DNA of 64,000 bases from Acidimicrobiia bacterium (GCA_016215655.1 JACRIT010000085.1:39007-103006); one strand, 5' to 3'; positions 37,767 through 42,266 are shown, numbered from the stretch's first letter. Notes: generated from the sequence alone by a model not told the origin. Numbers and translations are program-made.

Positions 37767-39278
37767 TCAACCCACGGCGATGCGCACCGTGTGATGTCCC
37801 GTGGCGCCATCGGGGCGGGGCGGCAGGGGTTCGGCGGTCTGGGTGTATCCGGTGGCATCGGTCGCCCGCACCGCCACCCGATGCTCCCCGGCCGTCAGAT
37901 CGACGGTCGCCTGCCATTGGACCCAGGCATGGGACGACAACGCCTGCGTGATCTCGCCGGGGACCCACTCCCCCGCGTCCACGGAGACCTCGACACCGGA
38001 TACCCCGTGCAGCGGCGCCCACGCCACGCCCGCCACCGCCACCGGACCGGGAGCCACCCGGGAACGGGGGAGATCGATGCGGGACTGCGTCTTCACCGGA
38101 GCCGCCTTCGACCATCCCCGCGGCACCCAGTAGGCGTCGAACCCATCCCAGGTGGTGAGCTCGATCTCGGAAAGCCACTTGGTCGCCGACACATAGCCAT
38201 AGAGGCCGGGAACGATGAGCCTCGCCGGGAAGCCGTGCGCCGCCGGAAGCGGATCCCCGTTCATGGCCAGAGCGACCAGCGGCTCCCGCCCGTCGAACGC
38301 GGCATCGGGCGGGAATCCCACGGTGAAGCCATCGACCGACCGTCCCACGAGCTGGCTGGCTCTCGATTGCACCCCGGCGCGCTCGAGGATCTCGGCGAGA
38401 CGCACACCGGTCCACCGGGCGTTGCCAACGAGTTCGCCACCCACTTCGTTCGACACGCAGGCGATGGTGACGTGATCCTCGACCAACTCCATGCCGAGGA
38501 GGTCGTCATAGGTGAACGCCAGCGGCTCGTCGACGAGACCCGACACCCGCAGCGTCCAGCGGCCGAGATCGACCCGGGGAACGACGAGCGCGGTGTCGAT
38601 GCGATAGAACTCGCGGTTGGGCACCACGATCGGCGTGATCCCATCGAGGGCGAAGGAGTGCTCCGCGCCCGGGGTCACCGCCGGGCGTGGTACCGGCCCG
38701 ATCACCCGCGGCGCCACCGCCGGTGTCGCCGTCGACAGGCTCCTGCCGACCACTCCGGCGGCGAGGGCGGCCGCCCCGGCGGCGCCGGCCATGCCGAGAA
38801 AGCGACGCCGCGACCCATCGGCGGGAACGCCGTCGGTGGGGGCGGCGTCACCGCCGATCCGGCCCAGGCCAAAGGCGACCAGGATCCCGGCGGCGACCGC
38901 GATGAGGGTGGCCCAGCTCACCGCCACGGCCCCGGCATCGGGCTCGCCACTTCCGGCAAGCGCCCCGAGGACGCCGAAGCCGGCGAAGACCGTCACGAGC
39001 ACCGCGGGGCGGGTGCGCGCCGCCACACCGGCGAACCACCCGAGCATCGCCGCCACCACGACCGTGCCGATCGCCAGCGCCGTCTTGTCGGCCGTCCCAA
39101 AGGTGGCGATGGCGAAGTCCTTCAGCCAGGGGGGAGACCCGTCGACGACGGCGCCTCCCACTGCGGCGAGCGGCGAAGGAATCGCGCTGAACAATCCCCC
39201 GGCCAGTTCCCCCACCCCGAGGGCGACTCCGGCGCCGACGAGTCCGGCGGTCCCCCATCGCACGGTGTCCGGTCGCAT
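37767..39278 (-). CDS. membrane-anchored molybdopterin-dependent oxidoreductase (sulfite-oxidase family)
   Basis: N-terminal ~4 TM helices, an internal SRRRFLG twin-arginine-like motif, a Moco-binding core (VSNEVGG..NARWTGVRL..GFPARLIVPGLYG) and a C-terminal Ig-like dimerisation domain. Start set at MRPDTVRW; the ORF extends to 39338. Confidence 0.8.
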   Translation of the reverse strand: MRPDTVRWGTAGLVGAGVALGVGELAGGLFSAIPSPLAAVGGAVVDGSPPWLKDFAIATFGTADKTALAIGTVVVAAMLGWFAGVAARTRPAVLVTVFAGFGVLGALAGSGEPDAGAVAVSWATLIAVAAGILVAFGLGRIGGDAAPTDGVPADGSRRRFLGMAGAAGAAALAAGVVGRSLSTATPAVAPRVIGPVPRPAVTPGAEHSFALDGITPIVVPNREFYRIDTALVVPRVDLGRWTLRVSGLVDEPLAFTYDDLLGMELVEDHVTIACVSNEVGGELVGNARWTGVRLAEILERAGVQSRASQLVGRSVDGFTVGFPPDAAFDGREPLVALAMNGDPLPAAHGFPARLIVPGLYGYVSATKWLSEIELTTWDGFDAYWVPRGWSKAAPVKTQSRIDLPRSRVAPGPVAVAGVAWAPLHGVSGVEVSVDAGEWVPGEITQALSSHAWVQWQATVDLTAGEHRVAVRATDATGYTQTAEPLPPRPDGATGHHTVRIAVG

Positions 39279-39328
39279 TCCCCACTCAACGCCCCGACCC
39301 GTCGGGTCGTTCCCGGTACCGTCACCGC

Positions 39329-39754
39329 ATGGGACCACGGGCCCGCCGGATCGCAGCCGTCACGGTGGTGGGCATCCAGCTCGTGCTCATCCTGCGCGCC
39401 TATTCGGCACCGATCGACACCTTTGGGTTTCAGATGTTTCCCGAATCGTCGCAGTGGCAGGCGGAGATCTACCGGGTGCTGGGCAACGGCAGTCGGATCG
39501 ACGTGCGCCAACCGTGGCCCGGCGGCTACCGGTGGGAGGACCTCGTCGACGCCCGTGGACTCGGGGCACCCTACGACCCCCACCACGCCGATGCCGGACT
39601 CGATGCCACGATGTACCTGCTCGATGCCGCCCTCGATTGGGTCGCCGCCAACACCCCTGACGACCACGAGACCGTCCGCCTCATCGCCGAAGTCACCCTC
39701 ATCCACAACGGCCGGGCGCCCACGACGCTGGTGCTGGAGAGCGATCCACGGTGA
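39329..39754 (+). CDS. hypothetical signal-anchored protein (first gene of the HTTM operon)
   Basis: 141 aa, N-terminal hydrophobic helix RIAAVTVVGIQLVLILRAYSA, no Cys; its stop overlaps the next GTG start. Confidence 0.5.
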   Translation: MGPRARRIAAVTVVGIQLVLILRAYSAPIDTFGFQMFPESSQWQAEIYRVLGNGSRIDVRQPWPGGYRWEDLVDARGLGAPYDPHHADAGLDATMYLLDAALDWVAANTPDDHETVRLIAEVTLIHNGRAPTTLVLESDPR

Positions 39755-40824
39755 TGGGCCGCGTGCGCCAATGGCTCTCCGCGCTCGACGAGCCGATCGA
39801 CCCGCGCCCCTTGGTGCTGCTGCGTCTTGCCGTCGGGCCCTTGGTGCTGATGCACCTCATGCCGTTCCTCTCGCGAGCCGCCGATGGCGTCATCTATCGA
39901 GACCGCTTCTGGCTGCCCTATGCCGACTGGTATCCCCATCTGCCGCGTGACGCCTACCTGGCGCTCTTGTGGTGCGTCGTCGCCGCCGGGTTCCTGGTGT
40001 CCCTCGGTCTCATCACCCGAATCGCGGCGTGGGTGTGCGCCGCAGGCGTCGCCTACAACCTCTTTCTCAGCCAGACCCACTTTCACCACAACCGGGCGTT
40101 TCTCCTGATCCTGCTCGTCGGTGTCGCCGTGCTTCCCGCCGGCGCGTCGCTGTCGGTCGATCGACGCATCGGGACGCCGGCTCGTCTCAGCCGTGGCCGG
40201 GGAAGGCGGCTGGCGCTGGTGGTGCTCCGGGTCGAGATCGCCCTCGTGTATCTCGCCTCCGGCGTATCGAAGCTGCTCGATGCCGACTGGTGGGGCGGCA
40301 CGGTCACCCGGCTGCGGGTGGTCGCCGGCGCCGACCGGGTGCCCGGCTTCCTTGCGGACCTCCTCCTCGATCCCGGGTTCCACGCCTGGGTCGCCAAGGC
40401 GATCGTGGTGACGGAGATCTTCATCGGCGCCGGGCTGCTGTGGCGGCGCACCCGCCTTGCCGCGGTGTGGGCGGCGATCCCCTTCCACCTCGCCATCGAG
40501 GCGACGGCCGCCGTCCAGGTCTTCTCCTGGGCGGCCCTGGCGGCGCTCGTGGTGTGGGTGACGCCGTCGTCGTCCGATCGCCGCCTCCAGGTGGCCTCGG
40601 GACGCCAGGCGCGACTGGTGCGCGCTCTCGATTGGACGGGACGCTTCGTGGTCACCACCGGCCCGCAGATCGAACTCGAAGACCGAGGCGGCCGACGCCG
40701 GCAGGGACGCGAGGCGGCGCGATTCGCCGCGACCCGATTCCCCCTCACCTTCTGGGTCGTGGCACCGCTGATGCTGGTGCATGCCGCCTACCCTTCGGCA
40801 GACGCCGAGAAAGGAATGCCGTGA
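39751..40824 (+). CDS. HTTM-domain (vitamin K-dependent gamma-carboxylase-like) polytopic membrane protein
   Basis: LVLLRLAVGPLVLMHLMPF...DRFWLPYADWYPH...NRAFLLILLVGVAVLP; 357 aa, multiple TM helices. Confidence 0.8.
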   Translation: MMGRVRQWLSALDEPIDPRPLVLLRLAVGPLVLMHLMPFLSRAADGVIYRDRFWLPYADWYPHLPRDAYLALLWCVVAAGFLVSLGLITRIAAWVCAAGVAYNLFLSQTHFHHNRAFLLILLVGVAVLPAGASLSVDRRIGTPARLSRGRGRRLALVVLRVEIALVYLASGVSKLLDADWWGGTVTRLRVVAGADRVPGFLADLLLDPGFHAWVAKAIVVTEIFIGAGLLWRRTRLAAVWAAIPFHLAIEATAAVQVFSWAALAALVVWVTPSSSDRRLQVASGRQARLVRALDWTGRFVVTTGPQIELEDRGGRRRQGREAARFAATRFPLTFWVVAPLMLVHAAYPSADAEKGMP

Positions 40825-41114
40825 CGACGCCCACGCCGCCGACACCGCTGTGGAGGACTCGCAGGTTTCGCATCGCCGCCCTCGCCGGGACCGTCGTCCT
40901 GCTGGCGCTCATCATCATCCTGCAGAACCTGGAGCGGTGGGACATCCAGTTCCTCTTCTGGAACGTCCGCACCTCGATCGCCGCCACGATCTTCGCCTCG
41001 ATGCTGGCCGGTGCCGGACTCGAGGTGCTGCTGCGCCTCGTGCTTCGTCGCCGCAAGCGCAAGCGCGAGTCGGCGCGGCTCGCGGAACACAAGCCCGAGG
41101 AGAAGACCGACTAG
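40821..41114 (+). CDS. LapA-like / DUF1049 small inner-membrane protein
   Basis: GTG start overlaps the HTTM stop (GTGA); two TM helices followed by a basic tail (LRLVLRRRKRKRESARL). Confidence 0.6.
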   Translation: MTTPTPPTPLWRTRRFRIAALAGTVVLLALIIILQNLERWDIQFLFWNVRTSIAATIFASMLAGAGLEVLLRLVLRRRKRKRESARLAEHKPEEKTD

Positions 41115-41124
41115 ACGGCCCTGG

Positions 41125-41595
41125 CTAGTAGCGCGGACCCTGATACCGCTTCGGCGGACGGCCGGTGAGCGAGGGGGCACCCCACGTGTCGTGGTACCAG
41201 ACATGGCGGAGCATCAGCCGGGCCTGCTCCACCCAGTTGGCGAGGGTCGCCTCGCGCGGAGTCTTCTTCTTGAGCCCTTCGATGGCGGCGGCGATCTCCA
41301 CCTCGCCCGCCAGCTCCATCGGGTTGCGGGTGCTGAGGTCCACCACGCCGGCCACCCCGGCGCGGACGAGGAGGCGTGCGTAGTCGTCATCGACGCCATT
41401 GATGCGCATCAGATCGCACCGATGCACCCAGTCGGCGATGCGGCGCGTCGAGATCTTGGTGAGCGCGGCGATCTCGGACCGGCCGTCGGGGGTGCTCCCC
41501 CACTTCAGCAATGCTTCGGTGTTCTTGATCCCGGCCTTGGTCAGCCGCTCGATCTGCTTGTCGCCGATGCCCTTGAGTTTCTCCAGCTTCGCCAT
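41125..41595 (-). CDS. DUF4332-like (tandem helix-hairpin-helix) protein
   Basis: MAKLEKLKGIGDKQIERLTKAGIKNTEALL...INGVDDDYARLLVRAGV; 156 aa. Confidence 0.65.
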   Translation of the reverse strand: MAKLEKLKGIGDKQIERLTKAGIKNTEALLKWGSTPDGRSEIAALTKISTRRIADWVHRCDLMRINGVDDDYARLLVRAGVAGVVDLSTRNPMELAGEVEIAAAIEGLKKKTPREATLANWVEQARLMLRHVWYHDTWGAPSLTGRPPKRYQGPRY

Positions 41596-41661
41596 GCGGT
41601 CTCCTCGGATGTGCGGGCCAAACCTACCAATCCGCGACACCCGCTGCGCCGGAACCGGCGG

Positions 41662-41915: not shown

Positions 41916-42266
41916 CTAGTACCCGAGTTCCTGCAGCCGCTCGTCGTCGATGCCGAGGTGGTGCGCCACCTCGTGGAGCACGGTCTTGCGGATCTGGCGG
42001 CGCAGCCGCGACGGTGGGAGCCGCAGTTCGAGGTGCGGGCCCATGAACACGGTGATCCGGTCGGGGAGAAACCCGGAGTAGCCGCTGGAACGGTCGTGGA
42101 GGTTTACCCCCTCATAGAGCCCGAGCAGCCCGACACCATTGGGATCCTGCTCCGCCGACGGCCATTCCTCGACGACGACGTGGAGATTGTCCACGGCGGC
42201 GGTGACCCAGTCGGGCAGGTCCTCGAGGGCCTCGTCCACGAGGGTCTCGAAGTCGGCGCGTCTCAT
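41916..42266 (-). CDS. metallopeptidase-family protein (DUF1025/COG3824, HExxH)
   Basis: 116 aa with HEVAHHLG zinc-binding motif. Confidence 0.75.
   Translation of the reverse strand: MRRADFETLVDEALEDLPDWVTAAVDNLHVVVEEWPSAEQDPNGVGLLGLYEGVNLHDRSSGYSGFLPDRITVFMGPHLELRLPPSRLRRQIRKTVLHEVAHHLGIDDERLQELGY

Follow-up and report, generated by a model that had tools for sequence, protein, structure and literature searches.

Introduction

In the human vitamin K-dependent gamma-carboxylase (VKGC, or GGCX; PDB 9BUM and 9L54), the HTTM domain is followed by helix 9, the lumenal loop LL9 (residues 393-404, ...YGYSWDMMVHS) and clamp A; LL9 covers the vitamin K pocket, and the backbone of its Met401 contacts Lys218 (PMC12647623). 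Lys218 is the general base deprotonating the quinol, Trp223 is stacked on Lys218, Asn159 binds the Glu carboxylate and Phe299 is stacked on CO2 (PMC12647623). A split VKGC homologue was predicted in a preprint of August 2026 (10.64898/2026.08.19.745780), in which AlphaFold 3 was applied to a DUF5819 protein and the adjacent HTTM-DCC1 protein; in the resulting model the DUF5819 helix superposes on a GGCX helix, the DUF5819 domain lies at the position of the clamp, and Leu59 and Phe60 touch a quinone pocket lined by Lys189, Trp195 and Phe273. As outlined in the same preprint, MloH of malonomycin biosynthesis is a VKGC-like bacterial HTTM enzyme in fused form, part of which corresponds to the small partner. 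In the present study, a DNA stretch of 64,000 nucleotides from Acidimicrobiia bacterium (GCA_016215655.1 JACRIT010000085.1:39007-103006; the whole stretch is referred to as the window) was analyzed computationally, with the focus on two overlapping genes, gene 1 for a small membrane-anchored protein and gene 2 for an HTTM membrane protein. An initial annotation, made from the sequence of the window, had placed both in an operon with a third gene (gene 3), divergent from a gene for a molybdenum cofactor (Moco) oxidoreductase.

To our knowledge, bacterial HTTM proteins are numerous and almost entirely uncharacterized. The comparisons presented here indicate that genes 1 and 2 probably encode two subunits of one VKGC/HTTM-type membrane enzyme, with a 4-nt gene overlap coupling their synthesis. 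The unit of interest is this pair and not the three-gene operon or the Moco neighbor, and gene 1 represents a new, unmodelled partner family within the recently predicted kind of split HTTM enzyme. That gene 1 resembles precisely the part of VKGC which is missing from the HTTM gene had escaped the initial annotation.

Conservation of the gene pair

Database searches yielded 1555 relatives of gene 1, none of them with a Pfam domain, which formed 216 clusters at 50% identity and were nearly all 130-170 amino acids long. Gene 1 is a member of a conserved family that has neither a Pfam nor an NCBIfam model, a new protein family deserving one. Relatives were located at 210 species-level genome loci in Acidimicrobiia, Thermoleophilia and Chloroflexota, and the closest ones were found in metagenome-assembled Acidimicrobiia genomes. 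All neighborhood counts given in the following rest on 80 of these 210 loci.

An HTTM gene was located directly 3' of gene 1 on the same strand in 77 of the 80 loci, the other three being contig ends, and its start overlapped the gene 1 stop by 4 nt in 62 of the 72 loci that could be analyzed in this regard. The 141-amino-acid open reading frame (ORF), for which the initial annotation had asked for a conservation check, is accordingly one with many relatives and with the HTTM neighbor in all 77 informative loci. The pairing was also observed among distant members of the family. Within the set of 28-32% identity, the gene next to those for the proteins P0247 and P0197 encodes an HTTM orthologue, and that next to P0253 is a partial gene matching the HTTM profile; the pairs in relatives of 30-32% identity are those of the loci L085/L086 (with the 4-nt overlap), L087/L088 and L090. 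On a 1.6-kb contig, the gene of a relative of 28% identity (P0206; L089 841-1652) also overlaps the next gene by 4 nt, but the latter encodes another kind of membrane protein, which gave no HTTM profile match. The adjacency of gene 1 and the HTTM gene is far beyond chance, and one large HTTM subgroup is therewith seen to have a specific small partner that is always present.

From the chained stop and start codons the initial annotation had deduced obligate co-expression of all three genes. This is supported for gene 1 and the HTTM gene, whose adjacency and 4-nt overlap extend across Acidimicrobiia, Thermoleophilia and Chloroflexota and persist to about 30% identity. Gene 3 was present in only 5 of the 80 loci. 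Clustering of the flanking ORFs of the 80 loci, in search of a third conserved gene or a substrate gene, gave no cluster occurring in more than 16 loci, which agrees with the earlier statement that no substrate peptide is encoded nearby; many of the clusters consisted of wrong-frame ORFs typical of DNA with a high G+C content.

Gene 2 and the HTTM core of VKGC

The assignment of gene 2 to the HTTM family, already made in the initial annotation, was upheld by a match to PF05090 over residues 14-272 with 83.1 bits (cutoff 27.7) and an E value of 3.2e-23, and 50 of 50 gene 2 orthologues matched the same model. For the comparison with VKGC a human query sequence was used that is identical to the PDB chains over residues 1-629. 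The hhalign alignment of the 50 orthologues with human VKGC had a probability of 96.5% and an E value of 7.6e-10, and paired residues 3-275 of gene 2 with residues 46-316 of VKGC, i.e. with the HTTM domain. It ends before helix 9 of VKGC, and the match of VKGC to the lumenal-domain profile PF22777 covers residues 358-524.

Within this alignment, the residues of the VKGC active site that were introduced above are retained as invariant residues in gene 2: Lys174 is aligned with Lys218, Trp180 with Trp223, Asn114 with Asn159 and Phe258 with Phe299. Invariant His246 is in addition aligned with His287 of VKGC.

The gene 2 orthologues fall into two length classes, one of about 300 amino acids without an extension, which occurs in Chloroflexota and some Ilumatobacteraceae, and one of 360-400 amino acids with a C-terminal extension. 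The extension has the motif LDW.gRF ... SRLP.T.WF, is free of cysteine in the window protein, and sits where the HTTM partner of DUF5819 has its DCC1-like thiol-disulfide domain. None of the gene 2 orthologues has a CxxC at the aligned position. A Pfam scan of ten gene 2 extensions gave one weak DCC1-like match (PF04134, E 0.12) in the correct register, and PF04134 was not matched by any of the 50 full-length orthologues at E up to 0.01.

At two loci (L032 6417-9344 and L054 6411-10193) the HTTM reading frame is extended to 975 and 1260 amino acids, respectively. In Pfam, the additional part gave nothing beyond a weak squalene-hopene-cyclase C-terminal match in L032; either the HTTM genes at these loci are genuinely fused to an unknown domain, or a stop codon is missing.

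Gene 1 and the lumenal region of VKGC

The AlphaFold2 model of gene 1 (predicted local distance difference test score, pLDDT, of 89) has a membrane helix at residues 3-26, followed by a loop of low confidence which holds FGFQMFPES, the most conserved motif of the family. After the loop, strands were modelled at residues 42-51 and 56-58, helices at 69-76 and 91-107, and strands at 115-125 and 132-137, so that the soluble part is predicted to be a beta-beta-alpha-alpha-beta-beta domain. The invariant residues of the family are Arg23, Tyr25, F32, M36, F37, P38, E39, S41, W43, W63, Y67, W69, A87, G90 and N127; Gln17 is nearly invariant and lies, like Arg23 and Tyr25, in the membrane helix. Because of these invariant polar residues inside the helix, the N-terminus is probably a retained anchor and not a cleaved signal peptide. 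Gene 1 is proposed to be a partner subunit of the HTTM protein, with a membrane helix in N-in orientation, a loop resembling a lid and a small alpha/beta domain on the extracytoplasmic side.

The order of these elements matches residues 358-480 of VKGC, where helix 9 leads into the LL9 lid loop and this into the clamp A core. In hhalign comparisons of gene 1 with PF22777 profiles the matches were collinear and comprised the helix with its conserved Gln, the motif FGFQMF aligned to FSWRMM, and the final ..V...NGR.P hairpin; the gene 1 helix was paired with the helix-9 segment 'Q..lPlRh' of PF22777. When no secondary structure was used, these comparisons gave local P values of 2e-4 to 9e-4, a global P value of about 3.5e-5 and a probability of 44-46%. 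The inclusion of model-derived secondary structure raised the probability to 89% in local and 73% in global mode, and in the register obtained in this way Gln17 of gene 1 is paired with Gln374 of VKGC, Phe32 with Tyr397, Phe34 with Trp399, Met36 with Met401 and Phe37 with Met402. The soluble part alone, compared with column shuffles, reached z = 4.5, with 1 of 200 shuffles reaching the observed score; a circular-shift null was uninformative for local scores. A model of the standalone PF22777 protein P0285 (pLDDT 85) showed a helix at residues 14-40, a loop, strands at 64-72 and 78-81, helices at 89-94 and 99-115, and a strand at 122-130. The models of gene 1 and P0285 thus share an identical order of elements, and in both the conserved motif is located in a loop of low confidence.

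On the strength of these alignments, the membrane helix of gene 1 is proposed to be the equivalent of VKGC helix 9 (Gln374 region), and the gene 1 loop the equivalent of the LL9 lid loop with Y397-S-W399-D-M401-M402. As judged from the aligned regions, gene 1 would account for no more of VKGC than helix 9, LL9 and the core of clamp A. Equivalence of the roles of gene 1 and the VKGC lumenal region is better supported than homology of the two, which is likely but unproven.

Comparison with split and fused HTTM systems

The DUF5819/HTTM-DCC1 pair resembles the pair described here in that a small partner with an N-terminal membrane helix and a domain is encoded beside an HTTM protein with a C-terminal extension. 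The spacing from the lysine to the tryptophan (6) and to the phenylalanine (84) is equal in both HTTM proteins, with positions 189/195/273 in the partner of DUF5819 and 174/180/258 in gene 2, and both small proteins have two hydrophobic residues shortly past the helix, Leu59/Phe60 in DUF5819 and Met36/Phe37 in gene 1. They differ in the size of the domain, which comprises about 113 amino acids in gene 1 and about 158 in DUF5819, and in the extension of the HTTM protein, which in gene 2 is without CxxC and shows only a trace of a DCC1-like signal.

The second comparison concerns HTTM proteins with PF22777. A tblastn search of gene 2 against plasmids returned one distant match, the Bernardetia protein WP_338815710.1, which is of the fused PF22777 form: it has 476 codons including the stop, the VKGC lumenal region is fused to the HTTM part, and its relatives are annotated with PF22777 (VKGC_lumenal_dom). 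Split pairs with the order HTTM then PF22777, for which the P0280 locus is an example, were identified in two independent assemblies (L083 3102-4513 and L084 812-2223), where a 300-amino-acid HTTM gene is followed, with a 4-nt overlap, by a standalone PF22777 gene of 170 amino acids. Split HTTM/PF22777 forms of this canonical type may be common. Fused and split forms alike share with gene 1 a helix with a conserved Gln, a loop of the type [FY]x[WF]xM[MF] and a small domain with an NGR.P hairpin at its end. Further standalone PF22777 proteins were noted on long contigs (P0322, P0341, P0353 and P0403).

Human VKGC differs from the present pair in being one polypeptide; here two proteins are involved, and the helix-9 part is encoded upstream and not downstream of the HTTM part. 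MloH, compared by its description, is likewise fused and belongs to a biosynthetic gene cluster, in contrast to the pair in the window, which is located among housekeeping genes. Gene 1 is therewith a third type of HTTM partner beside DUF5819 and split PF22777, and bears on the assembly of animal VKGC.

Proposed mechanism and alternative explanations

The pairing of the genes is conserved, their overlap is conserved with it, the catalytic residues are retained in gene 2, and gene 2 has no helix 9 and no lid. Building on these observations, a concrete structural role as ninth helix, active-site lid and minimal outer domain is proposed for the small partner. Gene 2 would provide an eight-helix HTTM core with a VKGC-like active site, lined by Asn, Trp, His and Phe and equipped with Lys174 for deprotonation of the quinol. 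Gene 1 would be inserted with its N-terminus inside and its C-terminus outside, and would form a physical complex with the core by packing in trans as the ninth helix. Like LL9 in VKGC, its FGFQMFPES loop would form a lid on the quinone and active-site pocket, and its outer alpha/beta domain would stand in place of the clamp A core and shape substrate access. By analogy with VKGC, the complex would bind menaquinol and use O2 to make a strong base, which in turn would take a proton from a substrate that is located outside the cytoplasm and has no gene in the vicinity; the product may be carboxylated or not. Animal-type carboxylation of protein Glu is not implied, because clamp B and the propeptide-binding parts are absent and the position of His160 is occupied by Arg. 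We know of no Gla-type substrates in the bacteria carrying genes 1 and 2.

A farther-reaching version of this proposal is possible but rather doubtful: the pair may be a widespread chromosomal, menaquinol- and O2-dependent two-subunit enzyme of Acidimicrobiia, Thermoleophilia and Chloroflexota, which applies VKGC chemistry, possibly carboxylation, to a cell-envelope substrate and has a minimal detachable clamp subunit. If true, this version would show how a fusion of two bacterial subunits could have given rise to the animal carboxylase. For biochemistry, genes 1 and 2 form an expression unit and are to be expressed together.

Several results weigh against the assignment of gene 1 and gene 2 to a split VKGC-like enzyme. 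The position of VKGC His160 is taken by the invariant Arg115 in gene 2, nothing in the two genes corresponds to clamp B, and they likewise have neither a cap-propeptide apparatus nor the C-terminal domain. Without secondary structure, the hhalign probability for gene 1 and PF22777 stayed below 50%, and no match was obtained when human VKGC by itself was compared with the gene 1 family in hhalign. A structure search with the gene 1 model did not recover VKGC, whereas the PF22777 control did. The hidden Markov models (HMMs) of PF22777 and DUF5819 matched neither gene 1 nor 48 diverse relatives nor consensus sequences of the family (three in the case of PF22777) at E up to 5-10, and the SdpA HMM had no match in gene 1 or the 48 relatives. 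No reliable natural fusion of gene 1 and HTTM was found among the long gene 1 matches; those considered as candidate fusions look like out-of-frame products of the frameshift type, and P0189 looks like a chimera or a deletion. Searches of PDB chains by sequence, with the gene 1 profile and with gene 2, returned chance-level matches only.

The failed structure search, the missing PF22777 and DUF5819 matches and the borderline hhalign result would suit an alternative in which gene 1 is an obligate HTTM partner unrelated to the VKGC lumenal region, for instance a convergent single-pass assembly factor, regulator or substrate adaptor. We consider this unlikely, given that the motif matches are collinear in the helix, the loop and the last hairpin and the order of secondary structure elements is identical. 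Moreover, gene 2 lacks exactly that region of VKGC, and split PF22777 and DUF5819 partners provide a precedent.

That gene 1 is instead a membrane-anchored substrate, on which the HTTM enzyme modifies a conserved residue such as the invariant Glu39 in MFPES, has little probability. It would account for an invariant Glu in a conserved flexible loop beside the membrane and for the lack of any other substrate candidate encoded nearby, but with the conserved 4-nt overlap the two proteins are likely made in matched amounts, as would be expected of a subunit rather than of a substrate, the invariant polar residues in the membrane helix suggest helix packing, and the loop aligns with the VKGC lid loop and not with Gla-type substrates.

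Similarly improbable is a DoxX/MauE-like quinone-linked module of thiol or sulfur redox chemistry that works with the Moco enzyme. Gene 2 matches DoxX (25.3 bits, cutoff 23.6) and MauE, as do 20-25 of the 50 orthologues, and the Moco gene is divergently adjacent. However, DoxX and MauE are related families, their matches lie over that to HTTM, which is much stronger, the pocket residues and the catalytic lysine known from VKGC are invariant, the gene 2 extension is without cysteine, and the Moco neighbor is rarely retained (see below).

SdpB of Bacillus subtilis is HTTM-like and works with a small partner, a likeness from which the initial annotation had drawn an analogy to SdpA/SdpB, and gene 2 has a weak match to the SdpB model TIGR04033 (E 3.7e-6); nevertheless, a peptide-toxin maturation system of this kind is extremely unlikely, as this match reached 26.7 bits against a cutoff of 178.4, neither SdpA (TIGR04034) nor another relevant NCBIfam model was matched by gene 1 or the 48 relatives, and no conserved SdpC-like peptide or immunity gene is found in the housekeeping surroundings. 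The membership tests and the lack of conserved neighbors are the reasons why the SdpA/SdpB and DoxX/MauE explanations are both disfavored, and with the SdpA/SdpB analogy and the link to the Moco enzyme two misleading leads are removed.

Locus organization and neighboring genes

The features of the locus are compiled in Table 1. The three plus-strand genes are chained as initially described, with GTGA stop/start overlaps between genes 1 and 2 at 39751-39754 and between genes 2 and 3 at 40821-40824, and a purine-rich, Shine-Dalgarno-like stretch precedes each of them. The surrounding genes have housekeeping functions (EF-G-like GTPase, citrate synthase, MMPL, threonyl-tRNA synthetase, pyridine nucleotide-disulfide oxidoreductase and acyl-CoA synthetase), and the setting of genes 1 and 2 is neither a biosynthetic nor a toxin cluster.

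Table 1. Coordinates of the features at the gene 1/gene 2 locus, counted from the first nucleotide of the window.
Feature	Position	Strand	Description
Moco gene, divergent neighbor	37767-39278	-	Polytopic sulfite-oxidase-family Moco protein
Intergenic region	39279-39328		50 bp between the divergent Moco gene and gene 1
Gene 1	39329-39754	+	141 amino acids, ORF call
Gene 1 membrane helix, residues 3-26	39335-39406	+	Predicted; helix in AlphaFold2 model and conserved residues
Gene 1 loop F32-G-F-Q-M36-F37-P-E39-S-S41	39422-39451	+	Conserved columns
Gene 2	39751-40824	+	357 amino acids, HTTM membrane protein, ORF call; alternative ATG at 39754
Gene 2 Lys174 codon	40270-40272	+	Invariant; aligned with VKGC Lys218
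Gene 2 C-terminal extension, residues 273-357	40567-40821	+	Orthologue alignment
Gene 3	40821-41114	+	97 amino acids, two-helix small membrane protein
DUF4332 gene (helix-hairpin-helix motif)	41125-41640	-	Converges on the operon; position kept in closest relatives only
Zincin_1 gene	41916-42266	-	Converges on the operon; position kept in closest relatives only

The DNA of the locus has a G+C content of about 70%, and very long ORFs in other frames or on the opposite strand were noted over the genes at 37791-39950 (+), 39571-40845 (-) and 39969-41114 (+). They were rejected as genes, as similar wrong-frame ORFs cluster across loci and are typical of DNA of this composition. A terminator scan gave a single terminator-like site; it belongs to the minus strand and falls within coding sequence where genes 2 and 3 meet.

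Gene 3 had been labelled LapA-like. Its match to LapA_dom (PF06305) is below the threshold, with 19.4 bits against a cutoff of 28 and an E value of 1e-3, and the layout as a two-helix small protein is compatible with that family. In all five loci that have it, the HTTM stop and the start of gene 3 share an ATGA or GTGA. Gene 3 is an accessory specific to this lineage and is translationally coupled to gene 2.

The minus-strand neighbor was correctly described as a sulfite-oxidase-family Moco protein (Oxidored_molyb / Mo-co_dimer in Pfam) with N-terminal hydrophobic segments and an internal SRRRFLG. The order of its elements is four N-terminal hydrophobic segments, the SRRRFLG twin-arginine motif, a fifth hydrophobic segment and the Moco domain. 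The Sec and Tat pathways act together in the insertion of polytopic MoCo proteins of the Sco3746 family (eLife 2017, PMC5449189). With four Sec-type helices, a twin-arginine motif, a fifth helix and a Moco domain, that family is like the window protein in architecture, the level at which the two were compared, and by this analogy the four-helix membrane anchor with its internal SRRRFLG probably represents the known Sec/Tat design. A function shared with the HTTM operon, as had been suggested, finds no support in the neighborhoods: the Moco gene was beside gene 1 in 7 of the 80 loci, all from close relatives, and other neighbors were retained in the closest relatives only (DUF4332 in 7 of the 80 loci, gene 3 in 5 and patatin in 5). 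The neighborhood of the Moco gene, gene 3 and DUF4332 reflects synteny by descent, and the Moco enzyme is an incidental neighbor outside the conserved module.

If read as its longest ORF, the Moco gene begins at GTG 39338, which gives the overlap with gene 1 that the initial annotation had assumed. However, all five relatives in the alignment retain ATG 39278, and the stretch beyond it behaves as non-coding; therefore, the Moco gene and gene 1 are divergent across a 50-bp gap and do not overlap. A scan with the sigma-70 consensus gave no promoter-like site in this region. The five-relative alignment revealed two conserved blocks, TCAACGCC at 39286-39293 and the TAnnnT-type hexamer TACCGT at 39317-39322, which ends 6 nt before the gene 1 ATG. 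From what is known of actinobacterial promoters, the position of the hexamer is compatible with a leaderless gene 1 transcript, and both blocks taken together suggest overlapping divergent promoters with a putative leaderless gene 1 mRNA.

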